The notes under the pieces were generated by a model, which did no database searches, had not been told where the DNA came from, and saw nothing but the letters and a program-made list of their open reading frames with translations. A program made the position numbers and the translations under genes. DNA of 42,288 nt from a virus (lineage: Duplodnaviria > Heunggongvirae > Uroviricota > Caudoviricetes): the IMG/VR virus record IMGVR_UViG_2778260993_000007, positions 1 through 42,288 of that record; one strand, given 5' to 3'. Shown piece by piece: positions 1-41,147 of the stretch (within the stretch, counting starts at the first letter, position 1; each line of letters starts with the position of its first letter).

Positions 1-1257
1 GTGCTTACCGATACAAAATTAAAAAACCTCAAGCCGCAGGACAAACTGTACAAGGTCTCCGATCGTGACGGGCTGTATGTAGCTGTGCTTACGTCAGGCA
101 CGGTCTCGTTTCGCTATGACTACCGTATCAACGGTCGCCGCGAAACACTGGTAATCGGGCAGTATGGGCGTGACGGTATCAGTCTAGCAGAAGCGCGAGA
201 AGAACTGATTGCTGCAAAGAAGCTGCTTAAAGCAGGCCAGTCGCCGGCTGCGGCTAAACGTGACGGTATCAAAAAGATTCGTGGTGCCGAGACGTTTGCG
301 GTACATACCGACAGTTATATGAAACACGTCATCCTGGCTGACAGTACCCGCGCAATGAAGCAGGCGGTGATCGACCGTGACATACTTCCGGTTCTTGGTA
401 ACAAAATGATGGCTGAAATTACCACATCGATGGTTCGTGATTTGTGTGACCGGATTGTCGAACGTGGTGGTCGGGCAACAGCAGTACAGGCCAGGGAGAT
501 CATCAGCAGCGTATACCGTCACGCCAATGACCGTGGTCATGGTTTGTTTAATCCTGCGGCTGACATTAAACCTTCGTCTATCGCCATATTTAAACCACGA
601 GAGCGAACACTGACACCAGAAGAAATTGGCCTATTCTTCCGCACGTTGGATGCCATTGGTGCTATGGGCACTATGAAAATGGCTTTAAAACTGGTGCTTA
701 TCACTATGGTTCGTAAGGGCGAATTCACCAATGCAACGTGGGATGAAATAGATTTTAAAAAATGGACATGGACAATTCCTTCAGACCGCATGAAGGGAAG
801 CCGGGCGCATGTTATTTACCTGCCTAAACAGGCTCAGGATATATTGGTCGGGTTGCAGATGTGCGCTGGTGGAAGTGAATATCTGGTTCCTGGTCGTTAC
901 AATTTCAGGAAGCCATTATCTAATGCCGCGCTGAACTCTCTGATCGACAGAACGGTGAAAATAATAAATGAAGATGGTGAGAATATTCAGGACTTCACAG
1001 TACACGATATGCGCCGTACAGCCAGTACGTTGTTGCATGAGGCTGGTTATCCTTCAGACTGGATTGAAAAGGCTCTGGCACATGAGCAGAAAGGTGTGCG
1101 CGCCGTATATAACAAAGCGGAATACGCCAGACAGCGCGCCTACATGTTGCAGCAGTGGGCCGATATGATTGATTCCTGGATTAACGGGGAGCATACGGAT
1201 CTGATTCCGTTCTCCCCGTCGAAGTTTGAGAAGTGGATGGAAGACAGTAATAAATAA
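1..1257 (+). CDS. int: Phage integrase, tyrosine recombinase (P4-like family)
   Basis: 418 aa ORF; N-terminal region resembles the P4-type integrase arm-binding domain, C-terminal part has tyrosine-recombinase features (HxxR...Y region). Starts with GTG at window position 1, so the true N-terminus may lie outside the window. Confidence 0.85.
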   Translation: MLTDTKLKNLKPQDKLYKVSDRDGLYVAVLTSGTVSFRYDYRINGRRETLVIGQYGRDGISLAEAREELIAAKKLLKAGQSPAAAKRDGIKKIRGAETFAVHTDSYMKHVILADSTRAMKQAVIDRDILPVLGNKMMAEITTSMVRDLCDRIVERGGRATAVQAREIISSVYRHANDRGHGLFNPAADIKPSSIAIFKPRERTLTPEEIGLFFRTLDAIGAMGTMKMALKLVLITMVRKGEFTNATWDEIDFKKWTWTIPSDRMKGSRAHVIYLPKQAQDILVGLQMCAGGSEYLVPGRYNFRKPLSNAALNSLIDRTVKIINEDGENIQDFTVHDMRRTASTLLHEAGYPSDWIEKALAHEQKGVRAVYNKAEYARQRAYMLQQWADMIDSWINGEHTDLIPFSPSKFEKWMEDSNK

Positions 1258-1259
1258 TT

Positions 1260-1919
1260 CTATCCTTCCTGGACTTTGGTAAGCGTCAGATTTCCGCAGA
1301 ACACTGCGCCGGTGTCGATGTACATCTGGTTTGCATACACCAGTGGGTGATGTGCTGGCGTATGACCGAAGATGAACAAATCGGCACCGGTTATCTCCGA
1401 GACAATACCGTCCTGCGCGTCGCTAACCCGTTCACGATTCCATATCACCATTTCTTCTGGTACTGGCTTATCGAATGCGTATTCGTTGTGCGGGTAGTCT
1501 GCGTGACAGATGACGACCTTCTTATTGCCGGTAACCAGTTCGATAATCATCGGGAGGTTGGTAATCTTTGGCAGAAGGTATTTGAGTTGCACATCCTGCT
1601 CAGAATCAAGTTGGTGCCACCATCCACCGCCGTTTGACATCCAATGTCCGAAACTTCTGCCGTTGACCAGTGCATCCAGCATCATCTGCTCATGGTTGCC
1701 ACGAACAGCTCGGAACCACGGCATAGTAATCAAATCCAGGCATTCGACGTTTTCAGCGCCGCGCTCAACAAGGTCACCAACGGAAATAAGTAAATCGCGC
1801 ACCGGGTCGAATGAAACTTTGTCGAGTTCGTTCATCAGCAGCGTGTAGCACCCATGCAGATCGCCGACGACGAAGATATTGCACCAGTCAGCGCCATTGA
1901 TGCGTTGATATAGGTTCAT
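1260..1919 (-). CDS. Ser/Thr protein phosphatase (metallophosphoesterase, lambda-phosphatase/PrpA-like)
   Basis: Internal start at MNLYQ within track ORF 1260..2039; metallophosphatase motifs GDLHG, GDLVERG and GNHE present. Confidence 0.85.
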
Positions 1920-2566
1920 GCTGCACGCTCCCGCCCCTGGTTGTCTATTGGTGACACCGGAGCATTGCTGAATGCATTTGTTAATCCTCCAATATCCAAC
2001 GCGTATCCAGGGTGTAGTTGCACTGCCGGGTCTTCGCACTGATTACCCCAAACATCGAAGCCATGAGACGTCTGGCGGGCGAACAGTTCAATGCGAGAAA
2101 CATCGCCTAACAATTGCACAAGTTTTTCACGAACGATATCTGGTTTTCTTGAATGCTCAAGCCGCGGTGCGGTAAATGACTGAACGATCCCTGCATTAAT
2201 GCGCGTAGGTAGTTTTCCCTTTACCGCAAACAGGCAATCTTCACTATTGGCGCGAGTCATGTGCCCCATACCCATAACCAGTTTATCTGGTTGTCGACTA
2301 CCACATTTTATCCACGTGAAGCCCTTCATGGTCATCAGACGGAATCCCCAGGCTTCAACAACTTTTAGCGCTTCGAGTGGTTGTGTTGGCACCCACCACA
2401 TAGCCAACAGACAGTTTTCATCGGCCAAATCCCACACAGGAAGGTGGCAGATATCCATCACACTCATAACCGGATATTTAAAACTGGCACCGCGATTACC
2501 ATCTGCGGCTTTGTCCCGGTATACCCAGGGTGGATCTGCATAGATTAGTGTGTATTTCTTAGTCAT
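1916..2566 (-). CDS. MT-A70 family DNA N6-adenine methyltransferase
   Basis: DPPW catalytic motif (YADPPWVY) near N-terminus; start refined to MTKKYTLIY with GGTGG RBS; 4-nt overlap with the phosphatase start. Confidence 0.8.
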
Positions 2567-2858
2567 AAACCACCCCACAACATCCTATGCCGCTATAGTC
2601 GCCACGGCGAAGGCCGTTACCTTTTGTGATACATTGGTCCCTGCGAACCGCGATCCTTGCACGTTCAACATCACCAGAAGCAACATCCATACACTGAAGC
2701 CAAAGGTGAGCGGCAATGCGGAATTGCCCTTTTTTCTCTCTTTCAATCGCGCGTTTTTCGATCTCTATCGCCGCAGGAGTAACGGCGACAATCTTTGAAG
2801 GGCTGCGCATTGAAACCTTGTTCATGTGATATTTTTCAAGTCGGCTTAACTTTCTCAC
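2559..2858 (-). CDS. Hypothetical protein
   Basis: 99 aa ORF filling the gap between methyltransferase and AlpA-like gene; alternative start codon with GAGGG upstream; no recognisable motif. Confidence 0.35.
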   Translation of the reverse strand: MRKLSRLEKYHMNKVSMRSPSKIVAVTPAAIEIEKRAIEREKKGQFRIAAHLWLQCMDVASGDVERARIAVRRDQCITKGNGLRRGDYSGIGCCGVVYD

Positions 2859-2967: not shown

Positions 2968-3216
2968 TCATGCAGCGTTGCTCACGGGACGATATACACG
3001 TTGCTGAACAGGAGGTTTTTTACCCTGGAACTCTGCCGGGCTTGCTGCCTGACGTTCATCAAGCCAACGCTCAACTTCGTCACGGTTCCATGCGCAGCGT
3101 TTGTCAGTGATATACCAGCGTTTAGGAAATTCCCCTGCGCGCTCCATACGGTCGATAGTGCTCCATGACAGTGGCACCACCGCCAGGAGTTCCTTCTTAC
3201 CTAATGCACCTTTCAT
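2968..3216 (-). CDS. AlpA-family transcriptional regulator / excisionase-like protein
   Basis: 82 aa with HTH region (LSWSTIDRMERAGEFPKRW) typical of AlpA/phage excisionase-like proteins; sits in the integrase-proximal early operon. Confidence 0.7.
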   Translation of the reverse strand: MKGALGKKELLAVVPLSWSTIDRMERAGEFPKRWYITDKRCAWNRDEVERWLDERQAASPAEFQGKKPPVQQRVYRPVSNAA

Positions 3217-3265: not shown

Positions 3266-4147
3266 TTACATAGATGTTTCGTTTAATTCTTCCCGACGAA
3301 CGCTGTAAACGTCGGTGGCTTTTGCCAGCAGTTCGTCATCATCTGAAAGTTTTTGTGCAATGTATTTGTAAGCCTTATCCAGTTCGGAGACAGTGCTGTA
3401 ATTCATCGCTGCGCTGGTAAAGGCCATCAGCATTTCTTCTGGATCACGGCTATCCGCTTTACGAGTTTGCTCATCAGGCTTTTTCACTGGTTTAGCGTTG
3501 ATCAGACTGTTCATTCCCGCAGCAGTAGTTGTTTGCGGAGTAATGTCTCGCTCAACGCGCGGTGCCGTTTCCTGTAATTCGTCAGGGGTGTAAACACCGA
3601 GAAGCACATCAGGAGCGTGCAGGCGAGCCCATCGTTTCGTGCAAAGATAGGCAAGCTGCTGGCGCGGATCCTGTTCCCACAATGGAGAGTTACGCACTCC
3701 GGCTTGCGCCATACTGATGGTAAGCTCACGGGGTTCTGCTTCTCCTTTAAGAACTGCTGACACAGTTACCGTCAGATTCGGTGATTTATCTGTTTTGCCG
3801 TTAACATTCGACCAGTCACCGCTCCAGCGATAATTCAGGCGTGTCGCCAGCAGGCTGGAAGAGGATACGACCGCGTTTACCAACTGTGCTTCGTAGCCTA
3901 ACGTTCCGTTTACCACATGCGTTTTCTGCGCCACGGCGAAAGGGTTCATTCCCCACTGTGCCGCCTGCATGGTCACCGCCAGACAATCGGCAGTTTTGCC
4001 TTCAAGATGTTTCGGTACAGTCGCTTTGCTTTGTGACATCAACTCCGCGAAACGCACCAGTTGATTCATGCCCTCCGGGCTGAAGATTGCCGCAGCAGTA
4101 CCTACAGTTGCACCTGGTTGTGATGTGATTGCGATATCATTGCTCAT
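3266..4147 (-). CDS. recT: RecT/Red-beta family single-strand annealing protein
   Basis: 293 aa; lambda Bet-like segment (APRVERDITP) and overall RecT/Bet-like composition; immediately downstream of an exonuclease partner with ATGA overlap. Confidence 0.75.
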   Translation of the reverse strand: MSNDIAITSQPGATVGTAAAIFSPEGMNQLVRFAELMSQSKATVPKHLEGKTADCLAVTMQAAQWGMNPFAVAQKTHVVNGTLGYEAQLVNAVVSSSSLLATRLNYRWSGDWSNVNGKTDKSPNLTVTVSAVLKGEAEPRELTISMAQAGVRNSPLWEQDPRQQLAYLCTKRWARLHAPDVLLGVYTPDELQETAPRVERDITPQTTTAAGMNSLINAKPVKKPDEQTRKADSRDPEEMLMAFTSAAMNYSTVSELDKAYKYIAQKLSDDDELLAKATDVYSVRREELNETSM

Positions 4148-4965
4148 ACGTACATATCCTGTTTACGTGCCCAGTCAGGGCGTTTAATAATTTCCACTCC
4201 GCCCCATTCATCGTTGATGCGGCATTCGTGATAGGTATTCAGATCCCGGCGGAACAGAGCGTGCCCGGCATCGACATCTGGCGCATCCAGCTCGAACACG
4301 CGTACCGGATACCGACCACAATCAATGCTTTCGCTCACGGCAAGAAAGAAAAAACCATGCGGCTGACCAGTAACCCTCATTGCGCCTTCGCGGTACATTG
4401 CGTCCTGCACGTGGTAGCGGAATTCCTCGATGTGGCGTGCAAAACGGTCCATATCTGCAACCTTTTTCACGTCGACGATCACGTTGTGCTCGTTCAGCCA
4501 TTTGTCTGGACGAATTCGGCACAACTCACCCGTCTCTTCATCGTTCCAGTACATTGATGCTTCGCAGTAACCAGGTGCTTCCAACATCCAGCGTGCCGCC
4601 GGGTGAGCCATTGCGCTATCACGCATCAGCTCTAGTTTCCGCCACTGCTCGGCATCAAGTACCGTAATCCCCATATCCGCCACATCACGAAGAAATGCCT
4701 CTTCGTCAGCTTTACCTTGTTTCGTCCGACGATCGAATTTCGGCGAAACAATGAAGCGTTTGTCGAACTCTCCAGGCTCCAGAAGAAGACAGTGCAATGC
4801 GGTTCCCATATCCAGTGCAGACTTTTTCTCTTCGTCTTCTGGTGCTGCCTGAACCCATTTAAGAAGCGCCGGATTCTTGGCAACCATGTCCAGTTGCGAC
4901 TTACTCACGCCGTCCCCGGCGTGGTAGTCTTCGTTGCTGATGTCGAAATAAATTCCCGGTTTCAT
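4144..4965 (-). CDS. YqaJ-like viral recombinase exonuclease (PD-(D/E)XK)
   Basis: 273 aa; typical partner gene upstream of recT; conserved acidic/lysine residues consistent with a PD-(D/E)XK nuclease. Confidence 0.75.
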   Translation of the reverse strand: MKPGIYFDISNEDYHAGDGVSKSQLDMVAKNPALLKWVQAAPEDEEKKSALDMGTALHCLLLEPGEFDKRFIVSPKFDRRTKQGKADEEAFLRDVADMGITVLDAEQWRKLELMRDSAMAHPAARWMLEAPGYCEASMYWNDEETGELCRIRPDKWLNEHNVIVDVKKVADMDRFARHIEEFRYHVQDAMYREGAMRVTGQPHGFFFLAVSESIDCGRYPVRVFELDAPDVDAGHALFRRDLNTYHECRINDEWGGVEIIKRPDWARKQDMYV

Positions 4966-5435: not shown

Positions 5436-5512
5436 TTACCGTTGAGGTAATAATTATGCGTATCTGGTTTGGTGTCAATAGATATGAGTTAAAAAAATTA
5501 CCCGTTAGGTAA
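5436..5512. promoter_or_regulatory. Predicted OL operator pair flanking PL
   Basis: Perfect palindromes TTACC-GTTGA-GGTAA (about 5436..5450) and TTACC-CGTTA-GGTAA (about 5498..5512) flank a minus-strand promoter with perfect -35 TTGACA (plus-strand tgtcaa about 5474..5479). Confidence 0.6.
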
Positions 5513-5523
5513 TCGAATAGGCA

Positions 5524-5547
5524 ATAAAAAAGCCGCCATAAGGCGGC
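5524..5547 (-). terminator. Rho-independent terminator after repressor gene
   Basis: Minus-strand stem GCCGCC-TTAT-GGCGGC followed by TTTTTT. Confidence 0.7.
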
Positions 5548-5569
5548 TTACTTACTGAAAAATATGATT

Positions 5570-6154
5570 TTATTGTTTGTTTTTTTCGTTCTGGTTGATG
5601 ACAAATTCAATGTAACTTTCGATCTTTGCCTTCTCTGTTTCAGGTAACAATGCGTAGCGCGAGCGGTCATAGTTGATAGTTGCAGGGTCATGCGGATGAA
5701 TCAGTAGTTCATATCCGTGACGCCCGAATGCAGATGCAACATTCTCCAGGGTGGAAATGGAAACGCTGACCTCATTGTTTAACAGGCGGCTTATTGTCAC
5801 CTGGGCGACGCCGGATGCGCGGTGAAGTTTTCCCTGAGTTGAAAGGTCGCGGCTTTCACTCATCCAGCGTTCCAGGTTGTGAGCTGCCAGCTGACCAATG
5901 TCGCTTGGTCCGACAGGCTGAAAACCTTCCTGAGAAAGCGAGCGATCGATATCAAGCCAGTTACGGGGTTTATTGGCGGCAGCTTCGATTTTTCGCGCAA
6001 CCTGGTCGCCGATAACCTTCTTGCCAAGAGCCCAGCGGTTTACCAGATTTGCCTGAGTTCCAAGTTTTTCTGCCATCCGCGTCTGAACACCATTGAATTC
6101 ACGGTCGATCAAGTCGTTGAGATTTTGCCTGCGGACGTCCTGGATACTTTTCAT
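5570..6154 (-). CDS. Prophage repressor (CI-like), tandem HTH, no S24 autopeptidase domain
   Basis: 194 aa; N-terminal XRE-type HTH (QTRMAEKLGTQANLVNRWALGKK) and a second HTH-like segment; divergent from Cro-like gene with operator repeats between; no Ala-Gly/Ser-Lys peptidase motifs seen. Confidence 0.7.
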   Translation of the reverse strand: MKSIQDVRRQNLNDLIDREFNGVQTRMAEKLGTQANLVNRWALGKKVIGDQVARKIEAAANKPRNWLDIDRSLSQEGFQPVGPSDIGQLAAHNLERWMSESRDLSTQGKLHRASGVAQVTISRLLNNEVSVSISTLENVASAFGRHGYELLIHPHDPATINYDRSRYALLPETEKAKIESYIEFVINQNEKNKQ

Positions 6155-6209
6155 TTTCTGGAAAATCGCCTCATATATGAATCAGTAGATGATTCAATTT
6201 AAAGCAATA

Positions 6210-6283
6210 TTACCCAACAGGTAAATGCACCCCATAGGTAACTATCCTTGATTTTTGTTACCTTATGGGTGAATATTTATTAT
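6210..6283. promoter_or_regulatory. Predicted OR operator triplet and PR promoter
   Basis: TTACC-CAACA-GGTAA (6210..6224), imperfect GCACC-CCATA-GGTAA (6227..6241), imperfect TTACC-TTATG-GGTGA (6258..6272); PR -35 TTGTTA (6255..6260) and -10 TATTAT (6278..6283) ahead of the Cro-like gene. Confidence 0.6.
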
Positions 6284-6308
6284 CTGAAATAAATATCAGG
6301 CAATAGCT

Positions 6309-6539
6309 ATGAGCGATAACGGACATTTCGATTTCAAAAAGCACTGGCTTGCACTTACTCCGGATGAGCGTGAAGCCTTCGCACAGGAAGCCGGAACGAC
6401 GAGTCACTATATCCAGACTCACTTAACAGGTAAGCGCAAAATGCCAGGTAAGGTATTGATGAATGGGCTTTTTAAAGCCTGTAAAACAAGACAATGGCTG
6501 CGCTCAAAAGCAGAACTGGCATACTTCTTCTACTCATGA
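6309..6539 (+). CDS. Cro/CII-like HTH regulator
   Basis: 76 aa; first gene of rightward operon; HTH-like segment (TTSHYIQTHLTGKRKMPGK) resembling lambda CII. Confidence 0.55.
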   Translation: MSDNGHFDFKKHWLALTPDEREAFAQEAGTTSHYIQTHLTGKRKMPGKVLMNGLFKACKTRQWLRSKAELAYFFYS

Positions 6540-6560
6540 TATCCAGCCACAACCCTCTGT

Positions 6561-6586
6561 AGACCGTCATCCGGCGGTCTTTTCAT
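6561..6586 (+). terminator. Putative terminator after Cro-like gene
   Basis: AGACCG...CGGTCT inverted repeat followed by TTTTC. Confidence 0.45.
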
Positions 6587-6595
6587 ATCTATTCT

Positions 6596-6610
6596 CACCT
6601 CAAAGGTAAT
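6596..6610. promoter_or_regulatory. Operator-like site TCACC-TCAAA-GGTAA
   Basis: 9/10 match to the palindrome; between Cro-like gene terminator and next operon. Confidence 0.45.
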
Positions 6611-6905: not shown

Positions 6906-7697
6906 ATGAGCAGACATGCAACAGATTGGGCCTGGGAGACAGATCCAGGTAGCTCGTCATTAAAGCTCATACTGCTCTCGATGGCTGACAGAGCCGATGA
7001 ATATAACCTCTGCTACCCCAGCATAGAACGACTCGTTAAAGACACTTGTCTGAATAAAAAAACCGTGCAGGCCGGGCTTATATCGCTCATGAAAATGGGG
7101 CTTATTTCAGATACCGGAGAGAGAAAGGGAGCGACAAAAAGAGTGCGGGTTTTCTCTCTTAATATAACCAAAAACGGGAACATTAAAGGCAACCGGGAGG
7201 GGGGCAATGAACCCGAAAACGGTAATGTTACCGAAAACGGGAATATACCCAAAAACGGGATGTTGAATGATCCCAAAAACGGGATCCAGAACCAGTCATA
7301 TAACCGGTCATTTAACCAAGAGAGGGAGAGCAGGACAAAAAACGGGGATTCTGTGTCTCATGACCCCGGCGCAAACAACGCCGTGATGAATAACTTTGTT
7401 CCTCCTGGTGGGCCAGGGCAATTAGGCAAATTTGTCATGCATGAACAATGGCAGCCATCAGATGACTTTCTTCGGAAAAGCTCATTGCAGGGAATCTACC
7501 TGGATAGTCTGCCAACGGCACAGGAACTTGCAGAGTTCAGAATTTACTGGATGGCTGAGGGTAAGGCATACCATCAGGCACAGTGGGAGCAGAAGCTGGC
7601 AAGGCGGCTGCAGATTAGCAGACAGAAGCAATCAACATTACCTGATAACAACGTTCCGCACTGGAATAGCCCTGAAGCATGGGAGGATTTCTTGTGA
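6906..7697 (+). CDS. Replication initiation protein (HTH N-terminal domain, DnaT-like C-terminal domain)
   Basis: 263 aa; N-terminal HTH replication-protein-like region; Asn/Gly-rich middle encoded by DNA iterons; C-terminal region resembles DnaT-type primosomal domain. Confidence 0.7.
   Translation: MSRHATDWAWETDPGSSSLKLILLSMADRADEYNLCYPSIERLVKDTCLNKKTVQAGLISLMKMGLISDTGERKGATKRVRVFSLNITKNGNIKGNREGGNEPENGNVTENGNIPKNGMLNDPKNGIQNQSYNRSFNQERESRTKNGDSVSHDPGANNAVMNNFVPPGGPGQLGKFVMHEQWQPSDDFLRKSSLQGIYLDSLPTAQELAEFRIYWMAEGKAYHQAQWEQKLARRLQISRQKQSTLPDNNVPHWNSPEAWEDFL
7168..7284. repeat. Iteron array (putative phage origin of replication) inside replication initiator gene
   Basis: Five direct repeats CC(A/G)AAAACGG(G/T)A(A/T) at about 7168, 7213, 7231, 7248, 7272; lambda-like placement of ori within the initiator gene. 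Confidence 0.65.
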
Positions 7698-9814: not shown

Positions 9815-9815
9815 C

Positions 9816-33071: not shown

Positions 33072-33096
33072 AGGCCGCTTTCGCGGCCTTGTTTTT
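33072..33096 (+). terminator. Terminator after BRO-type antirepressor gene
   Basis: AGGCCGC-TTTC-GCGGCCT followed by TGTTTTT. Confidence 0.65.
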
Positions 33097-33256
33097 AACG
33101 AATGCCACCGCCGCCCGGGCTGGAATCCGCAGAACGCCCACCGCAGCGGGAGCCGTCAGCGGCAGTATCGCTGTCGTGCTGACAACGACCGGCAAAGGCC
33201 TGAGTTGAAGCTACCAGAGACAACAAAACGAACAGTGCAGCAAATGCTTTTTTCAT
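33095..33256 (-). CDS. Possible small secreted peptide
   Basis: Signal-peptide-like N-terminus MKKAFAALFVLLSLVASTQAFA; but Gly/Ser-rich remainder overlaps a GC-rich terminator region; may be non-coding. Confidence 0.2.
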   Translation of the reverse strand: MKKAFAALFVLLSLVASTQAFAGRCQHDSDTAADGSRCGGRSADSSPGGGGIR

Positions 33257-33325
33257 TGTGAAATTTCCATCTATAAGCCACCTCAATGTGGCGTCAATGA
33301 GTGTAGTACTGACTTTTGTTTCGTC

Positions 33326-33351
33326 CACAAAAAAGCCCGCGCTGCGGGCTT
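33326..33351 (-). terminator. Terminator after gene 33355..33987
   Basis: Minus-strand AGCCCGC-AGC-GCGGGCT followed by TTTTTTG directly after stop codon. Confidence 0.7.
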
Positions 33352-33354
33352 CTG

Positions 33355-33987: not shown

Positions 33988-34046
33988 TTCGTCCTCCCAT
34001 GTTTGGCTACAGGACGCGTTTTGAAGGGAAGATTAAAAATGCTTTC

Positions 34047-34061
34047 TTACCCTTGAGGTAA
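34047..34061. promoter_or_regulatory. Operator-like site upstream of gene 33355..33987
   Basis: TTACC-CTTGA-GGTAA in the 145-bp gap between AntA-type gene stop and next start. Confidence 0.5.
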
Positions 34062-34132
34062 TAGTACGCTATTCACCCCCAGTCTGCAATCTGTACAGAA
34101 TTATTTAAAGGCACGTCCCTGTGCCGCCGCCG

Positions 34133-34385
34133 TCAGAAGAACCCTGCCTTGTCGTTGATGTATTCCGCGTGCGTCTGGATATCACGCAGGCATTTGCTCA
34201 CACCAACGATGTAGCAAAACATGGTTGTCAGCTCCGCCGCCGCGCCCGATACATCGTGCCCGTCTTCCTGCAACTGGTTCAGCAAATTCATCAGCAGTGA
34301 GTTCTCCGTCAGGCCGAGAACACCAGACGGCGAATGAATCAGGCTACGGTAGCCGGGCTTCAGTGGGGCGCTGTATTCTTTTTTG
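34133..34385. repeat. Inverted repeat IR-3, right copy
   Basis: See left copy. Confidence 0.7.
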
Positions 34386-34789
34386 TCTTCCAGCTTGATC
34401 GCCTCCATAATGGCGGGCATGAAGCCTGACAAGACCTTCTCCACTTTTGTTTCTTGTTGTCTTAAACGTTTCTCGCATTCAATGAAGTAGCGTCGCACCT
34501 GGCGACCTTTTTCGTTACGCTCGACCATCGCCAGCTCTTTGGCTGTATCAAGGGTGAGGTGGTACTCTTTGCGGTTGTGGCCGCCTCTACCAGATGTTTG
34601 CTTTCCCAAATTGGAAAGCAAAATATAGTCTTGATTTTCAATGAATTCGTATTCTGATATGCGATTTGTAATCCATGCTGCAAACACCTTTTTAACACCT
34701 AAAAAAGCGTGCAGATCGCGGGCATTACAAAGTAGGGCTGTTTCGTTAGATATAGTGCCGTTGAATACGGGGATGAGTTGAGCGTTCAT
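34133..34789 (-). CDS. Antirepressor, AntA/AntB-type N-terminal domain plus shared C-terminal domain
   Basis: 218 aa; AntA-like N-terminus ([34 protein letters not shown]); C-terminal domain identical in protein sequence to that of 32329..33021. Confidence 0.7.
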
Positions 34790-35125
34790 GATGGCGTCTC
34801 CACTTAGCGAATTACATCACCACCGCTGAGACCAATCAGATGGTGGTGAACTGAACGGAGTTGGTCTTACCGGCCTAAGTGGTACCGGCGTCCTTTCGGA
34901 CCCCCATTCAGCCCACCATAATTCTGGCATGACTGTGCTATACGCATAAAAAAACCACGTCTGGCGTGGTATGCGCCACTTAGTAATCCGGGAGACCAAT
35001 CCCGGCACTGGATTTTGCCAGTGCCCGATTACTATGGCACAAGAGGAGTGCAATGTAAATTTACCGCAAAGGTAATGATAAACGCGAAGAAATATTAAAA
35101 TCAACCGTATTTGGTTGATTGCGTT
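34790..35125. repeat. Inverted repeat IR-2, right copy (antirepressor leader)
   Basis: See left copy; ends at the AntA-type gene start codon. Confidence 0.65.
35061..35075. promoter_or_regulatory. Operator-like site in leader of AntA-type antirepressor gene
   Basis: TTACC-GCAAA-GGTAA; inverted counterpart of the site at 32048. Confidence 0.5.
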
Positions 35126-35150
35126 TAACGCTTGATCACCTGAAAGCAAG

Positions 35151-35200
35151 ATATTACCTTTAAGGTAATGTTATTGTGAGGAAAAGCAATGGAAGTTTTC
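35151..35200. repeat. Inverted repeat IR-1, right copy
   Basis: Reverse complement of 31432..31481 by direct comparison. Confidence 0.7.
35154..35168. promoter_or_regulatory. Operator-like site upstream of membrane/zinc-ribbon gene 35189
   Basis: TTACC-TTTAA-GGTAA, 21 bp before start codon. Confidence 0.5.
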
Positions 35201-35917
35201 TGGATAGTTGTTGGTGTGGTTGCGGTGATTATTTACGTTATCAACCAGAACAAGACTAAGATCTCTGATCGTACGGTCGTTAATTATAACAAAACGATAA
35301 AGACCGAAGATGGGGAGATAACGATTAATCGTACACAGGTGATAGAACACACCTCTACTCAGTTTCAAAAAACTGGAGGTAATGCGCCTAATATTTCCGC
35401 ACCTCCTGCTTATGATAGTGCGGTAATCCAGACATATTATAAACAGCAGGAGTTAGCAAAAGAGAGGCAACTGATTCAGCCAAAGCCGTTTACAGCTGAG
35501 CTTCCACCTGGAGTGTCAATGCGTCCGGCATATCATGGAAGATTCCCTGGTGATGACATATCGTCTCAGTCATCTAAAAAAGCACCTCAGGCAGTATCAG
35601 AGCCAGCAAGAATACCTTCTGTATCGCCGCCAAAAGAAGAATCAGCTAACAGAGTTTCAAGTGGTAGCAAGCAGTGCTTGCGATGCAGAATAAACCTACC
35701 ATATGAAAAATTCAGGAAATCGTCAAAAAATCCAGATGGATTGACTAAGTGGTGTGCAAGGTGTCTCGATGGCCCAAAGAATACACGCCATATGAAGTGG
35801 TGCCCAATTTGTAATGTCCGCAGAAAACGAACAAGCTTTTACCCTAATAATCAAAATGCGGATGGCTTAATGGCATGGTGCAAAACGTGCTGGGACGAGC
35901 ACAAAGCGAAACGATAG
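35189..35917 (+). CDS. Membrane-anchored protein with tandem C-terminal zinc-ribbon repeats
   Basis: 242 aa; N-terminal TM helix MEVFWIVVGVVAVIIYVI; two about 35-aa repeats each with CxxC...DGL..WCxxC. Confidence 0.6.
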   Translation: MEVFWIVVGVVAVIIYVINQNKTKISDRTVVNYNKTIKTEDGEITINRTQVIEHTSTQFQKTGGNAPNISAPPAYDSAVIQTYYKQQELAKERQLIQPKPFTAELPPGVSMRPAYHGRFPGDDISSQSSKKAPQAVSEPARIPSVSPPKEESANRVSSGSKQCLRCRINLPYEKFRKSSKNPDGLTKWCARCLDGPKNTRHMKWCPICNVRRKRTSFYPNNQNADGLMAWCKTCWDEHKAKR

Positions 35918-35939
35918 GCCGCTCTTGCGGCCTTTAAAT

Positions 35940-36197
35940 TTACCGGGTTTGTTTTCGTAATTGTTCGGCACAATAGTCGAGATGTGTTTGCAGATCCCGC
36001 ATAGACATCTGTGAGCTGGTGACGTAGTTAATCAGTGCAGTCAGTTCGGCAAGTGGGCCATCGACATTAAATCCATCCTTATCGAGCTCCCGGAGTAATT
36101 TCATCAAGTGCGATCCCTCCACCAGTGATCTGACGCCTCCCGGCGTGTGAATCCTTTCGGTAAATCCGTCTTCCAGTGGATAGTGATACTGCTGCAT
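35940..36197 (-). CDS. Small protein homologous to the antirepressor C-terminal domain (candidate SOS-induced antirepressor)
   Basis: About 85 aa from ATG with GGAGAAG RBS (track ORF extends to 36215); aligns with the shared antirepressor C-domain (TPGGVRSLVEGSHLMKLLRELDKDGFNVDGPLAELT...MRDLQTHLDY); LexA box immediately upstream. Confidence 0.6.
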   Translation of the reverse strand: MQQYHYPLEDGFTERIHTPGGVRSLVEGSHLMKLLRELDKDGFNVDGPLAELTALINYVTSSQMSMRDLQTHLDYCAEQLRKQTR

Positions 36198-36218
36198 CTT
36201 ATCTTCTCCATGCAATAA

Positions 36219-36234
36219 CTGTATAAATATACAG
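36219..36234. promoter_or_regulatory. LexA (SOS) box
   Basis: aaCTGTataaatatACAGta: CTGT-N8-ACAG with AT-rich spacer matching the enterobacterial LexA consensus TACTGTATATATATACAGTA at most positions; about 22 bp upstream of start of minus-strand gene 35940..36197. Confidence 0.65.
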
Positions 36235-36273
36235 TATCAAATAATTTATTTGCTATCCAGCACGTTTTGCGAA

Positions 36274-36288
36274 TCACCTGAAAGGTAA
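36274..36288. promoter_or_regulatory. Operator-like site TCACC-TGAAA-GGTAA upstream of tail fiber gene
   Basis: 9/10 match; in divergent intergenic region between LexA-box gene and tail fiber gene. Confidence 0.45.
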
Positions 36289-36392
36289 TATCTGTTCGTA
36301 TTTATGGGTTGTCTATCCATATATGGTTTTTCAGGTAATAGAATAACCGGATATGCGGCGCAACGGGTGCTGCGACTATCTGGAGATTTAAC

Positions 36393-38927
36393 ATGACGGT
36401 CTCAACCGAAGTTGACCACAACGAATACACCGGTAACGGTGTTACAACGACATTCCCTTATACCTTCAGGATTTTCCAGAAATCTGATTTAGTAGTGCAG
36501 GTTGTTGACCTGAACGAGAACATCACAGAGCTGATTCTTGATACTGATTACATAGTCACTGGTGCGGGAGGGTATAACGGCGGCAATGTAATTCTGTCGA
36601 AGGCGTTGGTTAACGGTTATCAGATTTCTATATCAAGAGAGCTACCGGTTACGCAGGATACCGATCTGCGCAACCAGGGTAAGTTCTTCGCTGAGGTGCA
36701 TGAAGACGCATTCGATAAACTGACGATGCTGATACAGCAGGTTAGAAGTTGGTTCAGGTTGGCTCTGCGTAAACCATCATTTATTGCTAATTATTATGAT
36801 GCTTTGAACAATTATATTCGTAACCTGAGAGATCCCAGATTTCCGCAGGATGCGGCAACAAAAAATTACGTGGATACGCTTGCTGGTAGCAATCTAAGCA
36901 AAACTCTTCGCGTTCCTGAATCAATACCTTCCTTACCTGATGCTATTGAAAGAGCAAACAAGATGGTTGCTTTTGATAATGATGGTAATCCATTTGTCGT
37001 ATTACCACCATCTGGATCTGCCTCAGACGTTCTAATTGAATTAGCTAAACCTGATGGGTATAAGTTAATTGGTGGATTAGAAAACAGATTATATATATAT
37101 GATATAAGCGCACTAGACGGTGAGCGGAATAGTGATCAGCTTAATGCTATATTTTATAAGTATAAAGATACACCAATAAAAATATACTCAAGCGTGCCAC
37201 TAACTTTCACCATAGATAAAGAAACACATCTATATGGTGATTTTGATTTGAGTAATTGTACTTTCCACTTAACAAACGGAAAGGTTGTGTATAAAGATGA
37301 AAGGGATGATGATAGTTATATAAAGGAAGTTAATATATCAACATACCCATTGAACGAATTAACCTCAGTTTTTTCTTGTGTTGAGGATTTAACAGGGTGG
37401 GGTAATTCGCTCGTCAAAATAATAAGTCCAACAGAGGTTGATCTCTATAGGTTGCTTGGTGGTGTATTCACCCCAAGATATAAAGGTGAAGTGAACTTTA
37501 TGACTAAGTCAGGGGAATTGGCTTACAGTCTTAAAAATACTTACAACGACCCCGTAACTTGTACGTTATTTAAGCTACCAACTAAGCGTAATAAAATTGT
37601 ATTGCCGCGTTTCACTGGTCAATTTTCACGCTATGCTTTTGATATCCAACGTTCTTTAGTTGATGTTGAGGTTGTTTACTTTAATGACATGGGGATGACA
37701 GCTACAGATTCTAATATTTTTGGTAGCTCTACCACCTACGGAGTTAACTGGAGATTAACGAGTGCGGGTATTACGCAGACGGATAATAATTCTCGTTATA
37801 CCGTAGCTATGGAGTACACCCTTAAACATACTTTTATCGGCTGCGAAGTGGGTAAGGGGTGGAGGTCTATTGACGGCAACTATTGCAGGGATGTGGTTGT
37901 GAGAGACAGTAATCTTGATAGCTTCCACATGCACTATGGGTGCTCAAAGATTCTTGTTGATAATTGCCGGATACCTGGAGGCGTCATGGTTGGTACTGGG
38001 GCGTTCGACGAGGCCACACAGATCATCAATTCTCACATAGGGCCGTTTGGAGTACGTACGGATTACGGTGAACATAAAGGTGATTTCATAGTCCGTGGGG
38101 GATCCGTTCGTATTCCAGAGGGTTCATCCGGTTTGGTGGATATGATTTTGTGTCGTCCAGACAATGTTATCGCGTCTGGGAATCCTGTTCAGCCGCGCAC
38201 TTTACATCTTCCGAAGAATATAATTGTACAGACGAATATATACTGGCCTTCTGAGGTAACACTCAATATTTTATCATTTAAAAATAACTTTAAAACACAG
38301 CCATCACCTTTGCGTGACTTTAAAATGCCGTCATTGATAGATTTTACTGGTAGCACTTTTAATGGTAAAGCCGCAAGATTTGAGTTGGCAATTTCATATC
38401 ATGATGCATCTACAAGAGATATTCCTGTAATTAAATTGACTCCAGCTAAATCAACTGGATGTAAAGTTGTATGTTATGTTGGATACCTGGATGAGTATGC
38501 ATCATGCCTTTATGGTCTTGAGAGCAATATGGATATTGCATATATGAATATCACATCAGGAATGAATAGGAGTTACATCAAGCATGATGGTGGTGTATTA
38601 CGTAGGTTTGTAGGCTATTCTGGTGGAAACACATATATGCTTGGCAGTGTTTATTTTGACAAAATGGCCATAGATTGGGATGTGAGTAACAACCTTGTTT
38701 CAGGATTTATGTCAGTGTCTGACTGTCTTATAGATGGTTCGAGAGCTAAGGGATCATCTTCATCTAAGCCGATAGTAAATACGTATGTACATAGGTCGGC
38801 AAATAATATATGTCATGAGATAGTGGCAACTGACTCAAGGGATGTTGTCGATAAAAAATATGCCCTTTGCAGTAGAGAGGGAACCGCAGGGAACTTCTCA
38901 ACAGGTGAGATACCTATAACATTTTAA
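36393..38927 (+). CDS. Tail fiber / tailspike protein (T7 gp17-like N-terminal adaptor, divergent C-terminal receptor-binding region)
   Basis: 844 aa; N-terminus (EVDHNEYTGNGVTTTFPYTF) resembles podovirus tail-fiber N-terminal domain; C-terminal two-thirds AT-rich. Confidence 0.75.
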   Translation: MTVSTEVDHNEYTGNGVTTTFPYTFRIFQKSDLVVQVVDLNENITELILDTDYIVTGAGGYNGGNVILSKALVNGYQISISRELPVTQDTDLRNQGKFFAEVHEDAFDKLTMLIQQVRSWFRLALRKPSFIANYYDALNNYIRNLRDPRFPQDAATKNYVDTLAGSNLSKTLRVPESIPSLPDAIERANKMVAFDNDGNPFVVLPPSGSASDVLIELAKPDGYKLIGGLENRLYIYDISALDGERNSDQLNAIFYKYKDTPIKIYSSVPLTFTIDKETHLYGDFDLSNCTFHLTNGKVVYKDERDDDSYIKEVNISTYPLNELTSVFSCVEDLTGWGNSLVKIISPTEVDLYRLLGGVFTPRYKGEVNFMTKSGELAYSLKNTYNDPVTCTLFKLPTKRNKIVLPRFTGQFSRYAFDIQRSLVDVEVVYFNDMGMTATDSNIFGSSTTYGVNWRLTSAGITQTDNNSRYTVAMEYTLKHTFIGCEVGKGWRSIDGNYCRDVVVRDSNLDSFHMHYGCSKILVDNCRIPGGVMVGTGAFDEATQIINSHIGPFGVRTDYGEHKGDFIVRGGSVRIPEGSSGLVDMILCRPDNVIASGNPVQPRTLHLPKNIIVQTNIYWPSEVTLNILSFKNNFKTQPSPLRDFKMPSLIDFTGSTFNGKAARFELAISYHDASTRDIPVIKLTPAKSTGCKVVCYVGYLDEYASCLYGLESNMDIAYMNITSGMNRSYIKHDGGVLRRFVGYSGGNTYMLGSVYFDKMAIDWDVSNNLVSGFMSVSDCLIDGSRAKGSSSSKPIVNTYVHRSANNICHEIVATDSRDVVDKKYALCSREGTAGNFSTGEIPITF

Positions 38928-38932
38928 AAATA

Positions 38933-38964
38933 AGGGAATGTAATAATACATTCCCTATTATATT
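38933..38964 (+). terminator. Terminator after tail fiber gene
   Basis: 8-bp stem AGGGAATG...CATTCCCT followed by ATTATATT. Confidence 0.5.
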
Positions 38965-39082
38965 GGTGTCCTTAGTCAGTTTCAGGCGCATGGCGGCAGA
39001 AACAGATAATCGCCCCACTATGCGGGTGGTTCTGATTTAAGTGACTTTAGTACGCAACAGATATAAAACAAATTTTTCTCTA

Positions 39083-39097
39083 TTACCGTTAGGGTAA
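39083..39097. promoter_or_regulatory. Operator-like site upstream of lysis cassette
   Basis: TTACC-GTTAG-GGTAA followed by repeated element GTTTTTTTATGTGTAAAG also found in the antirepressor leaders. Confidence 0.5.
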
Positions 39098-39200
39098 ATG
39101 AAATCGTTTTTTTATGTGTAAAGTTTATCATATATGGTTTACTGTGTATGATATACCCATTTAACTAAGGGCGTATCATGAACATTAAGCGGCGGTTACA

Positions 39201-39605
39201 ATGTCTACTGCTCTAACAAGCGAATCATTAAATCAGTGGCTTAGTATGGGATCTCTTGCTGCGGTGATAGCAGGAGCTCCTCCAGAGGTAGCTTTGGGAT
39301 CTTTGGCTGGTGCGGTAATTTTTGTTACCTCTGCGGTAGAGTATCCAATACGTCGTCGTGTTCTTCTATCGATGCTCAGCTTCCTCTGCGGCCTTCTCTT
39401 CTACAAACCAGTAGCATCAATTCTTATAGGCATAGCTAGCCTGATCCCTACCATCACCCAGGACTCTTTCGAGAAAGGGGTTGTTTTCTCTGCTGGCGCA
39501 TTCGTGTCAGCAATCGTCGCAGTACGAATTGGCATCTGGCTCTATCACCGTTCCGATAATCCACGTGAGTTAATTCCGGGGAGAAAAGACGATGGCAACG
39601 TATGA
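39201..39605 (+). CDS. Holin-like membrane protein
   Basis: 134 aa with multiple hydrophobic helices and charged C-terminus; first gene of lysis cassette. Confidence 0.5.
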   Translation: MSTALTSESLNQWLSMGSLAAVIAGAPPEVALGSLAGAVIFVTSAVEYPIRRRVLLSMLSFLCGLLFYKPVASILIGIASLIPTITQDSFEKGVVFSAGAFVSAIVAVRIGIWLYHRSDNPRELIPGRKDDGNV

Positions 39606-39900
39606 GCTTTTTTTTCTTATCACCAATGCAGTTATTTGTACTGGCATAGCAATTCGCGTTGTCACATTCCGGCGTAACGGATCTCAATATCGAAGATGTG
39701 GTGGGTGGCTTGCTTATTTCCTTATTGTTGCTGCGGCCAGCATTCCTGTTCGTGTCGTCTATGCAATTTGGTTATGCACGCCAATGGCTGTTGATTTATC
39801 TGAGGTCATTATTAACGCTGTCATGCTTACTGCTGTTATTAAAACACGCGGTAACGTTGTTCAGATTTTCAAAATATCGAGGTCTAAACATGGAGATTAA
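39592..39900 (+). CDS. Holin/antiholin-like membrane protein
   Basis: 102 aa with 2-3 TM segments, basic C-terminus; overlaps endolysin start. Confidence 0.45.
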   Translation: MATYELFFLITNAVICTGIAIRVVTFRRNGSQYRRCGGWLAYFLIVAAASIPVRVVYAIWLCTPMAVDLSEVIINAVMLTAVIKTRGNVVQIFKISRSKHGD

Positions 39901-40519
39901 ACAATTCCAGCGAGCTGCTGGTATCAGCGAGTCGCTTGCCGCACGCTGGTTCTTGCATATAACTTCTGCGATGAAAGAGTTTGGTATCAGCAACACCGAA
40001 AATCAGGCAATGTTTATTGCCCAGGTCGGGCATGAGTCTGGTGGCTTCACCCGGTTGCAGGAGAATTTCAACTACAGCGTTACCGGACTGGCGAGCTTTG
40101 TCAGGACTGGACGCCTCACCCAGGGACAGGCTAATGCACTGGGGCGCCGTGCTGGTGAACCACCATTGCCACTCGAGCGCCAGCGCGCGATCGCAAATCT
40201 GGTGTACAGCAAACGCATGGGTAACAATGCTCCTGATGATGGCTGGAATTACCGTGGGCGCGGGCTTATCCAGATTACCGGTTTGAATAACTATCGTGAC
40301 TGCGGAAACGGCTTGAAAGTGGACCTGCTGGAGAGCCCTGAACTGCTGGCGCAGGACGAATATGCGGCTCGTAGCGCGGCGTGGTTCTTCGCCAGCAAAG
40401 GATGCATGAAGTATACCGGCGATATTGCACGTGTAACTCTGATTATCAATGGTGGCCGGAACGGCATCGACGACCGGCGAGCGCGGTACATCACTGCCAG
40501 TAAGGTGCTGGCGGTATGA
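39890..40519 (+). CDS. Endolysin, glycoside hydrolase family 19 (chitinase-like)
   Basis: Start refined to MEIKQFQRAAG with GAGG RBS inside track ORF 39659..40519; GH19-like motifs (AQVGHESGGF, NYRGRGLIQITG). Confidence 0.8.
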   Translation: MEIKQFQRAAGISESLAARWFLHITSAMKEFGISNTENQAMFIAQVGHESGGFTRLQENFNYSVTGLASFVRTGRLTQGQANALGRRAGEPPLPLERQRAIANLVYSKRMGNNAPDDGWNYRGRGLIQITGLNNYRDCGNGLKVDLLESPELLAQDEYAARSAAWFFASKGCMKYTGDIARVTLIINGGRNGIDDRRARYITASKVLAV

Positions 40520-40998
40520 TCTGGGCATTCGTAAAAGCATACTGGAAACAGTTGATTATCGTGGCAGTGCTTGCTGTTCTGGTCATATCAGGAGTTGTTG
40601 CCTGGAATGTACACGGTAGCCGTCAGTACGACGCCGGGTATGCGCAGGCGAAAGAAGACTGCAAAGCTGAAGAAGAAAAAGTTCGTCAGTACTACGAACG
40701 GGAGAAAGCGACAAATGAACGTGAAGCGCAGCAGAGGATCGACCAGGCGCGCAATGATGCTCTTGATGCTGCCGCTCGCGCTGGCCGGTTGCAGCAACAA
40801 CTCTTTGCCATCCGTGAGCAGCTCAGGCAGTATAACGCCATTGTCGGCGCTGGGTCGTCAGCCGCAGACACCGGAGTTTTGCTTGCCGACGTGCTCAGCA
40901 AATCTCTCGAGAGAAACAGACAACTGGCAGAGTATGCTGACCGGGCAGCCGAAGCCGGAAGAGTCTGCGAAAAACAGTACGACACTTTGACCAGATAG
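40516..40998 (+). CDS. i-spanin (Rz-like)
   Basis: 160 aa; N-terminal TM helix then coiled-coil periplasmic domain; ATGA overlap with endolysin stop. Confidence 0.7.
   Translation: MIWAFVKAYWKQLIIVAVLAVLVISGVVAWNVHGSRQYDAGYAQAKEDCKAEEEKVRQYYEREKATNEREAQQRIDQARNDALDAAARAGRLQQQLFAIREQLRQYNAIVGAGSSAADTGVLLADVLSKSLERNRQLAEYADRAAEAGRVCEKQYDTLTR
40754..40990 (+). CDS. o-spanin (Rz1-like lipoprotein) embedded in +1 frame of i-spanin gene
   Basis: Internal start MMLLMLPLALAGC within track ORF 40571..40990; lipobox LAGC; Pro/Ser-rich mature part. Confidence 0.65.
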   Translation: MMLLMLPLALAGCSNNSLPSVSSSGSITPLSALGRQPQTPEFCLPTCSANLSRETDNWQSMLTGQPKPEESAKNSTTL

Positions 40999-41147
40999 CA
41001 TGGCATTTTTCATGGTACTGATTTCCGGTGACGGTATGTAAAACGGTACGGGAAAAATTGAGATTTGGAAAAATGTTATCACTCAATTAGTTATGGTTAT
41101 CGTAAATAATTGAGTGGGAATGATTTTAATCCCTGCACTATGAATGA

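Follow-up and report, generated by a model that had tools for sequence, protein, structure and literature searches.

The stretch of DNA analysed here (the window: IMG/VR record IMGVR_UViG_2778260993_000007, 42,288 nucleotides) contains a prophage of the genus Uetakevirus, the epsilon15/phiV10-like temperate podoviruses. It occupies positions 1-41125, codes for a tyrosine integrase and resides at the 3' end of the Escherichia coli gene guaA. The original prediction, made from the sequence alone, had described a mosaic of a lambdoid early region, a T7-like virion module, an immI region at the P22 position and a terminal lysis cassette. Module by module, this description holds, but it is not a novel mosaic: it is the published standard layout of Uetakevirus (epsilon15, phiV10, TL-2011b, ZX5, PAS61). 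What looked like a mosaic is how the members of a known genus are built, and this prophage is a new mosaic member of it. We are highly confident that the window as a whole is best explained by a Uetakevirus prophage in which dispersed operons are silenced by the repressor and a T7-related tail is combined with a capsid of the epsilon15/BPP-1 type. The coordinates of all features are listed in Table 1.

Identity and boundaries of the prophage

The window was compared with 50,697 phage records by megablast. Its left 25 kb are 97.7% identical over 85% of their length to Escherichia phage vB_EcoP_PAS61 (PAS61) and are similarly close to phiv142-3, HEMP4, TL-2011b, vB_EcoP_ZX5 (ZX5) and phiV10. For the right 25 kb, TL-2011b is the nearest relative (96% identity over 76%). 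The whole-genome comparison with temperate podoviruses, which had been proposed as a check, thus returns members of Uetakevirus at 96-98% DNA identity (PAS61, phiv142-3, HEMP4, TL-2011b and phiV10, with a query cover of 76-85%), and segments of epsilon15 match at about 78% nucleotide identity. The gene order is identical in the annotated records of TL-2011b, phiV10 and epsilon15.

Per-gene identities to phiV10, TL-2011b and epsilon15 were taken from a tblastn table. The integrase, repressor, Cro-like protein, terminases, portal, capsid, adaptor, nozzle and lysis proteins share 93-100% of their amino acids with phiV10 or TL-2011b. The integrase is 99% identical to those of both phages, and the repressor is 100% identical to phiV10p40. 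Only the nin-like genes, the gp14-like protein (57%), both large ejection proteins (of the TL-2011b type, with no counterpart in phiV10 and epsilon15), the segment from 30.9 to 36.2 kb and the last 70% of the tailspike have diverged or been replaced.

Of 5426 complete E. coli genomes, 329 (about 6%) contain at least 80% of window positions 1-25000. None carries at least 80% of positions 25000-41125 in one place, the best match covering 79% at 96.4% identity. This exact combination of modules is new, while prophages of this kind are common; the element is one more mosaic variant of a frequent E. coli family. Phages of the Uetakevirus type serve in O-antigen-specific detection and typing.

The right end is marked by the attR core ATTGAGTGGGAATGATT, which equals the att core reported for ZX5, phiV10 and epsilon15 (PMC9782041). 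The prophage therefore ends at 41125 and not at 41000, as had been predicted. Host DNA follows: at least 80% of positions 40900-42288 is present in 5347 of the 5426 genomes. At the other end, the window starts nine nucleotides ahead of the int start codon, and attL and guaA lie beyond it. The RefSeq record of TL-2011b (NC_019445.1) likewise runs into host DNA, at 41360-42430, and its gp54 (DUF5384) and gp55 (labelled "DNA methyltransferase") are E. coli yfgI and yfgH.

The repressor and its putative dispersed operators

Lysogeny would be maintained by the repressor with two helix-turn-helix (HTH) domains. Repressor function has been demonstrated in the relative ZX5, where the counterpart of this protein blocks lytic growth; its overexpression abolished free phage and lowered holin and endolysin transcripts by more than 99.9% (PMC9782041). 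Pfam detects only HTH domains in the window's repressor and no S24 peptidase/autocleavage domain.

The motif TTACC-N5-GGTAA (one mismatch allowed) occurs 18 times in the window, between 5436 and 39339, against 0.68 expected copies. This count was reached in none of 100 shuffles, and all copies but one are intergenic. At equivalent positions, phiV10, TL-2011b and epsilon15 have 14-15 copies each, and the T7 segment has none. Seven such sites are labelled as repressor-binding in the epsilon15 record. Putative operators of this type precede the nin-like genes, terS, the gp3/portal operon, both antirepressor cassettes, three cargo genes, the tail fibre gene and the lysis cassette. We infer that the repressor binds them at the divergent immunity promoters and before every other transcription unit. 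Because operators also lie before the late operons, the whole genome would be shut off directly and not via one Q-antiterminated late operon. Since the repressor lacks an S24 domain, derepression probably proceeds via Ant-type antirepressors, the translation of which would be held down by P1-type C4 antisense RNAs. Lambda-like early genes without Q, combined with the same operator on every operon, make this a notable layout.

A second motif, CATAT(A/G)TGGTT, is found in four exact copies, all on the coding strand and 44-56 nucleotides 3' of an operator. It is not present at terS. Its places are conserved in the relatives, epsilon15 among them, and it may serve as a late promoter element or as a site for an activator. 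Sigma-70 promoters were considered for the late operons and rejected: there are 9 sites against 13.9 in shuffles, none of them convincing near the operators. The operator, this box and the palindrome described below are all statistically real and conserved.

The early region was predicted to be lambdoid. Its gene order, the integrase, the recT/exonuclease pair, the repressor/cro pair and the P gene bear this out. The predicted O-like gene does not: it codes for a protein with HTH_36 and DnaT domains and is not lambda O.

The virion module and its remote relation to T7

The particle would be short-tailed. Its portal, adaptor, nozzle, gp13/14/15/16-like core and fibre anchor would be distant homologues of T7 gp8 and gp11-gp17, encoded in the same order. 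Order and protein sizes parallel T7 genes 8-18.5, including the holin and spanins after the fibre. As a control, 19 window proteins were compared pairwise (BLASTP and phmmer) with 14 T7 proteins from genes 8-19. Apart from weak gp15 matches, only the SLT domain rises above noise (902-residue protein against the N-terminus of T7 gp16, 30% over 147 residues, E 2.4e-4). Direct pairwise homology to T7 was therefore rejected. The protein BLAST proposed for the structural genes thus matches T7 in the SLT domain only, while profiles and podovirus structures do match. As judged from sequence profiles, the T7 homology of most tail and core proteins is real but remote. The prediction of T7-like virion genes stands for synteny and remote profile homology. 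It fails for the capsid, protease and cement proteins (epsilon15 GP7 and BPP-1 Bbp16/Bbp19 families) and for the terminase, to which the T7 likeness does not extend. The terminase is Sf6/P22-like, of the headful type and not of the T7 type. Pfam scans detected no RNA polymerase family, and each open reading frame (ORF) of at least 400 codons has another function (integrase, large terminase, portal, nozzle, two internal proteins, tailspike).

The portal is gp8-like, as predicted. It belongs to the same Pfam family as T7 gp8 (PF12236, 624 vs 379 bits), the two have reciprocal PHROG matches (332 and 449), and the C-terminus is indeed Gln/Met-rich (...ARQQRAQQQQQQQMMAMGMAAAQ...).

For the adaptor and nozzle, predicted as gp11/gp12-like tubular proteins, position and solved relatives agree with the prediction; membership in the T7 families does not. 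Neither the adaptor against PF17212 nor the nozzle against PF25675 gave a match, even at E <=1, and their PHROGs also differ from those of T7. Both match PDB entry 8ck1 ("Connector Protein" and "Tail Nozzle" are the depositors' chain names) and entry 9efk of Legionella phage LME-1 (orf17, 12 chains; orf18, 6 chains). The portal, adaptor, nozzle and fibre base of LME-1 resemble those of T7 structurally without sequence similarity (PMC12407071). The epsilon15 RefSeq record carries an HHpred note that pairs its gp11 with T7 gp11. Equivalence to T7 gp11/gp12 is thus supported via 8ck1, 9efk and this note. All nozzle homologues returned were at least 82% identical.

Internal ejection proteins with a transglycosylase domain had also been anticipated, and Pfam identifies a T7_gp14 family member and an SLT domain. 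The gp16-like protein aligns only to positions 199-1225 of phrog_342 and hence has no N-terminal lytic domain. Relative to T7, the domain is relocated: the lytic transglycosylase lies at residues 263-342 of the preceding 902-residue protein and not at the N-terminus of the gp16-like protein.

The gp17-like N-terminus predicted for the tail fibre is supported by four PHROG profiles (1640, 8460, 2710 and 27277) that are also matched by residues 1-150 of T7 gp17. The corresponding Pfam domain, PF03906, stays below threshold (12-17 bits against a cut-off of 25.2) but is in register in four family members. hhalign gives a probability of 1.8% for the fibre N-terminus against T7 gp17, and the AlphaFold model of this part (mean predicted local distance difference test score 47.8) is too poor for a fold search.

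Over its first 27-30%, the tailspike is 72-89% identical to its counterparts in phiV10, TL-2011b and epsilon15, and the remainder is unrelated; identity to the N-terminus of the ZX5 protein is 69%. This agrees with the conserved N-terminal anchor and exchangeable C-terminal domain reported for Uetakevirus tailspikes (PMC11522302). A tblastn search of the phage collection with the receptor-binding domain (37083-38927) gave no close match in sequenced Uetakeviruses. The tail spike of myovirus vB_EcoM_ECO1230-10 matches best (70.6%), ahead of podovirus P433.1, phage Paul and Proteus phage PM16. Whereas an O-antigen acetylase gene follows the tailspike gene in phiV10 and TL-2011b, neither such a gene nor any other serotype-conversion gene adjoins that of the window.

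The lysis cassette follows the fibre gene, as predicted (39201-40998), and is the last prophage module before attR. This position is universal in Uetakevirus and is T7's own order (17, 17.5, 18.5/18.7).

In the head module, the gene for the epsilon15 gp10-like capsid "staple" is cleanly missing at 20998-21055. Its counterparts are TL-2011b gp32 and phiV10p13 (about 317 bp). Among 21 matching phage records, only that of the isolated phage EC.W1-9 has the same gp10-less junction. This capsid variant offers a simple entry point for experiments.

phiV10 and TL-2011b share the tRNA-Arg gene that lies between terL and the portal operon, and ZX5 has likewise been reported to have one tRNA.

Two convergent antirepressor cassettes

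The region between the ejection proteins and the tail fibre had been compared with P22 immI. The position fits. The type of control does not, as the cassettes are of the P1/P7 C4 type and not mnt/arc/sar. At the Rfam gathering threshold, an isrK and a C4 RNA are found directly upstream of each full-length Ant gene (C4 family RF01695, 74 and 61 bits), and sar (RF00262), which TL-2011b has, is not found in the window. Cassettes A and B form the arms of an interrupted inverted repeat (31416-35214) and converge on a cargo segment; both Ant proteins end in a near-identical C-terminal domain. This locus varies among the relatives: phiV10 has a single cassette, TL-2011b combines one with a P22-type arc/ant/sar module, and epsilon15 has none. 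Overexpression of the Bro-N antirepressor of ZX5, which shares only about 39% of its residues with the phiV10 and phiv142-3 proteins, reduced lysogeny (PMC9782041).

A prophage of E. coli CE0007a has the same double-cassette arms with other cargo (locus 8503-9832). This difference in cargo between the same arms suggests a cargo slot. Duplicated C4/Ant cassettes that flank a variable cargo slot also provide a simple entry point for experiments. Of the cargo ORFs 30914-31441, 33355-33987 and 35189-35917, two begin with homologous sequence and carry a membrane anchor at the N-terminus. The ORF of 242 residues ends in Cys-rich repeats that match endonuclease VII and Lar-like PHROG profiles. PADLOC assigned none of the cargo ORFs to a defence system. 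The homologue of epsilon15 gp19 is a lone copy of the shared Ant C-domain (45% identity), and gp19 is kept even in epsilon15, which is devoid of C4/Ant cassettes.

The missing Q gene and a widespread palindrome

No ORF between the P gene and terS belongs to a Q family (Pfam, NCBIfam, PHROGs). The claim that a Q-like antiterminator is lacking is thus upheld: family scans are negative, and the predicted fold of the last early protein resembles ribbon-helix-helix (RHH) proteins and not Q. The search proposed for 12.5-13.0 kb yielded no homologue; the gene at 12582-12920, the last early gene before terS, belongs to phrog_536 and not to Q. This family comprises 149 representative clusters and is characterized by an N-terminal basic helix and invariant cysteines. 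N15 and an N15-like element encode a family member beside a genuine Q gene, a Mu-like element has one beside Mor, and another stands in a P2/186-like backbone. A Q-like nature of the protein was considered and rejected on the basis of family scans, fold and the homologues found alongside Q in N15-like phages.

The end of this gene is overlapped by the perfect palindrome GTGACATGTCAC, of which the window has three copies against 0.14 expected. epsilon15 retains copies 1 and 2 in place and has its third behind gp18, where the structural operon ends; in the records examined, two exact copies each are seen in phiV10 and TL-2011b. Co-occurrence was analysed in 13 loci with phrog_536 family members from diverse phages (91 kb in total). 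Nine of these loci contain exact GTGAC-N2-GTCAC, 13 copies in all where about 0.09 would be expected. No other palindrome of its class is as widespread, the runner-up being found in 3 loci. The palindrome overlaps the stop codon of the family gene in the window, epsilon15, N15 and one other lineage. In the Mu-like element it lies inside the 3' end of the gene, and in two related loci it immediately precedes the ribosome-binding site of terS. In the window, the palindromes always adjoin terminator-like hairpins, and the co-occurrence spans Uetakevirus, N15-like, Mu-like and other phages. Among the papers searched, no phage paper contained the palindrome sequences.

We infer that the RHH family protein binds GTGAC-N2-GTCAC. 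That it governs entry into late transcription we regard as possible but rather unlikely. A broader proposal, still tentative and only slightly more plausible to us, is that Q is replaced in Uetakevirus by two layers of control: one operator type before every operon, joined by the CATAT box at four of them, and the RHH protein with its palindrome, which may act as an early/late switch or insulator in many unrelated temperate phages. If the protein does control entry into late transcription, it would define a new and easily testable late-switch module common to lambdoid-like, N15-like, Mu-like and P2-like phages. The predicted small DNA-binding protein of the phrog_536 type is widespread and unstudied, and it goes along with a conserved palindrome at operon boundaries.

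Alternative explanations

Several points weigh against an intact, repressor-silenced Uetakevirus prophage. No single record spans the whole element, the best cover being 88% for the left 25 kb and 79% for the right 16 kb. With attL beyond the window, intactness of the element is not demonstrable from the window. With the gp10-like gene missing and one antirepressor ORF truncated, the element could be partly defective. The late promoters deviate from the sigma-70 consensus, so that an activator may be required. In one alternative account, the RHH/Cys-rich protein turns on the late genes at the GTGACATGTCAC palindromes, with the logic of Q but without homology to it. Its binding at the early/late boundary would overlap a promoter-like site at 12917-12946 and control readthrough of the terminator at 12970-12987 into terS. 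The last early gene is indeed placed directly ahead of the palindrome, the terminator and terS, an arrangement kept in epsilon15. The palindrome is far in excess of expectation in the family's loci and the leading one of its type there, often over the gene's stop codon or directly upstream of terS, and an RHH fold, as predicted, would fit palindrome binding. Homologues live, however, beside the late regulators that their phages already have (Q in N15-like phages, Mor in the Mu-like element, and a P2/186-like backbone), and the other two palindromes of the window are at operon ends, not at promoters. We consider this account unlikely.

Still less probable is a defective or cryptic prophage remnant. 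The missing "staple" gene, the truncated P22_AR_N fragment (31502-31900) and the unobserved attL would fit such a remnant. The remaining core genes, however, are not truncated and match those of plaque-forming phages at 93-100% identity, the gp10-less junction recurs in the isolated phage EC.W1-9, and the attR core is intact. We give hardly any credence to a recent recombinant of a lambdoid phage with a T7-group phage, even though lambda-like early genes (P, Ea22, RecT) do stand next to virion genes syntenic with T7 genes 8-18.5. Pairwise similarity to T7 is noise save for the SLT domain, there is no phage RNA polymerase, and the combination is fixed throughout the genus, including epsilon15 of Salmonella, so that any fusion of this kind is ancient and already described. 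The matches to phage records, the pairwise noise and the per-gene identities refute a recent event. The Uetakevirus prophage with dispersed, repressor-controlled operons thus remains the explanation that we favour.

Table 1. Features of the window (HTH, helix-turn-helix; ORF, open reading frame; RHH, ribbon-helix-helix).
Feature	Position	Strand	Evidence or remark
Tyrosine integrase (int), P4-type arm-binding domain	10-1257	+	Pfam Phage_integrase, Arm-DNA-bind_3, Phage_int_M
MT-A70 adenine methylase	1916-2578	-	Pfam; PADLOC MTase_II
PerC-like activator	2559-2858	-	Pfam
AlpA/excisionase-like protein	2968-3216	-	Pfam
RecT annealing protein	3266-4147	-	Pfam RecT, 4.8e-31
PDDEXK RecE-like exonuclease	4144-4965	-	Pfam DUF3799, 4.2e-22
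Putative operators, immunity region	5436, 5498		flank a leftward promoter-like site
Prophage repressor, two HTH domains	5570-6154	-	Pfam HTH_3; PHROG 8
Putative operators, immunity region	6210, 6258		between repressor and cro-like genes
Cro-like small repressor	6309-6539	+	phrog_35 "transcriptional repressor", 5.6e-13; divergent from repressor gene
Putative operator, immunity region	6595		region 5436-6609
Replication initiator, HTH_36 and DnaT domains	6906-7697	+	Pfam
Helicase loader, lambda P family	7679-8479	+	PF06992, 1.5e-56
Two putative operators and box CTTATGTGGTT	8517-8593	+	operators at 8517 and 8579, box at 8563; ahead of nin-like genes
nin-like accessory region	8597-12589	+	Pfam: DUF1064, DUF7739, Ead/Ea22, dATP/dGTP pyrophosphohydrolase and DUF551, others
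Small predicted RHH protein, Cys-rich C-terminus	12582-12920	+	epsilon15 gp49/N15 gp46 family, phrog_536
Palindrome GTGACATGTCAC, copy 1	12917-12928	+	overlaps stop codon of 12582-12920; in region 12917-12996
Terminator-like hairpin with T-run	12970-12987	+	about 40 nucleotides after palindrome copy 1, before terS
Two putative operators	13007-13039	+	abut the terS ATG; epsilon15 counterpart annotated as repressor-binding
Small terminase (terS), Terminase_2	ATG at 13040	+	Pfam; longer TTG-initiated ORF from 12961
Large terminase (terL)	13632-15107	+	phrog_2
Palindrome GTGACATGTCAC, copy 2	15182-15193		just after terL terminator-like hairpin 15160-15175
tRNA-Arg (TCT)	15768-15844	-	ARAGORN; Rfam
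Putative operator and box CATATGTGGTT	16166-16232	+	operator at 16166, box at 16222; ahead of gp3/portal operon
Portal, T7 gp8 family	16492-18171	+	PF12236; PDB 8ck0, 5.7e-179
Head gene block	18168-20998	+	first gene Bbp19-like; Pfam and PHROG
Protease/scaffold	18461-19162	+	Pfam/PHROG
Major capsid protein, epsilon15 GP7 family	19171-20163	+	PF20911, 2.1e-149
Bbp16-like cement protein	20215-20652	+	Pfam/PHROG
gp9-like gene	20663-20998	+	Pfam/PHROG
Tail adaptor, T7 gp11 position	21055-21660	+	PDB 8ck1_E "Connector Protein", 2.9e-26
Tail nozzle, T7 gp12 position	21660-24131	+	PDB 8ck1_A "Tail Nozzle", 1.1e-216
gp13-like internal protein, 154 residues	24131-24595	+	phrog_308, common with T7 gp13
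gp14-like internal protein, 188 residues	24595-25161	+	Pfam T7_gp14, 31.6 bits (cut-off 27)
Internal protein with SLT domain, 902 residues, gp15 position	25161-27869	+	Pfam SLT
gp16-like protein without SLT domain, 1007 residues	27869-30892	+	phrog_342, common with T7 gp16
immI-like accessory region	30914-36215	both	between ejection proteins and tail fibre
Cargo ORF	30914-31441	-	
Truncated P22_AR_N antirepressor ORF	31502-31900	-	Pfam
Cassette A: isrK, C4, Bro-N Ant	32099-32175, 32194-32280, 32323-33021	+	Rfam, Pfam
Palindrome GTGACATGTCAC, copy 3	33060	+	directly before terminator hairpin 33072-33095
Cargo ORF	33095-33256	-	
Cargo ORF	33355-33987	-	
Cassette B: isrK, C4, AntA	34948-35024, 34839-34923, 34133-34789	-	Rfam, Pfam
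Cargo ORF	35189-35917	+	
gp19-like stand-alone antirepressor C-domain, 91 residues	35940-36215	-	phrog_450; BLASTP
Putative operator and box CATATATGGTT	36274-36328	+	operator at 36274, box at 36318; ahead of tail-fibre gene
Tailspike/tail fibre	36393-38927	+	Uetakevirus N-terminal anchor (about 230 residues) and foreign receptor-binding domain
Putative operator and box CATATATGGTT	39083-39139	+	operator at 39083, box at 39129; ahead of lysis cassette
Holin-like protein	39201-39605	+	Pfam
Holin	39592-39900	+	Pfam
GH19 endolysin	39890-40519	+	Pfam
i-spanin	40516-40998	+	Pfam
Embedded o-spanin lipoprotein	40715-40990	+	translation with lipobox LAGC
attR core ATTGAGTGGGAATGATT	41109-41125	+	single occurrence; right prophage end
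Host genes yfgI and yfgH, not phage	41218-42288	-	downstream of att core

Comparison with known systems

With the members of Uetakevirus (epsilon15, phiV10, TL-2011b, vB_EcoP_ZX5, vB_EcoP_PAS61), the element shares the whole gene order, the att core and integration at guaA. The E. coli members also share capsid, portal, adaptor, nozzle and lysis genes at 93-100% identity. The operator motif is at the same positions, and the repressor is that of phiV10. The element differs from them in its new mix of variable modules, with ejection proteins of the TL-2011b type, a gp14-like protein at 57% identity and nin-like genes of its own. It has two convergent C4/isrK-Ant cassettes, lacks the gp10-like gene and the serotype-conversion gene, and its tailspike has its own receptor-binding domain.

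Phage lambda has the same order of int, xis-like, recombination, repressor/cro, replication and nin-like genes, and it shares the P-family protein and Ea22-like genes. In contrast to lambda, the window has no Q, no protein of the lambda O family, no S24 repressor domain and no single late operon, and its lysis genes are not upstream of the terminase.

With T7 (Autographiviridae), the order portal, scaffold/capsid, adaptor, nozzle, gp13, gp14, gp15, gp16, fibre, holin and spanins is shared, as are Pfam or PHROG families for gp8, gp13, gp14, gp16 and the gp17 N-terminus. The phage of the window is, however, temperate and devoid of a phage RNA polymerase. Its terminase genes are upstream of the portal gene, whereas those of T7 follow the fibre gene. 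Capsid, cement and protease are of the epsilon15/BPP-1 type, and adaptor and nozzle are outside the Pfam and PHROG families of T7. The SLT domain is in the protein at the gp15 position, and that of T7 is at the gp16 N-terminus. Portal, adaptor and nozzle are homologous to the solved, T7-tail-resembling structures of LME-1 and the podovirus of PDB entries 8ck0-8ck1, which may be Cobetia phage Carin-1. Bordetella phage BPP-1 shares the Bbp16 and Bbp19 families of the head module. These phages differ from that of the window in hosts and regulatory regions.

P22 immI (mnt-arc-ant-sar) is likewise an antirepressor module between ejection-protein and tailspike genes, and TL-2011b bears an Arc-like repressor, Ant and a sar RNA at that place. 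The window has neither sar nor Arc and instead carries C4 antisense RNA and isrK cassettes. In P1/P7 immI, a C4-family RNA is also found upstream of antirepressor genes; the difference is that the cassette of the window is duplicated in inverted orientation. P1 has dispersed C1 operators, and the window shares with it the scattering of one operator type before many operons.

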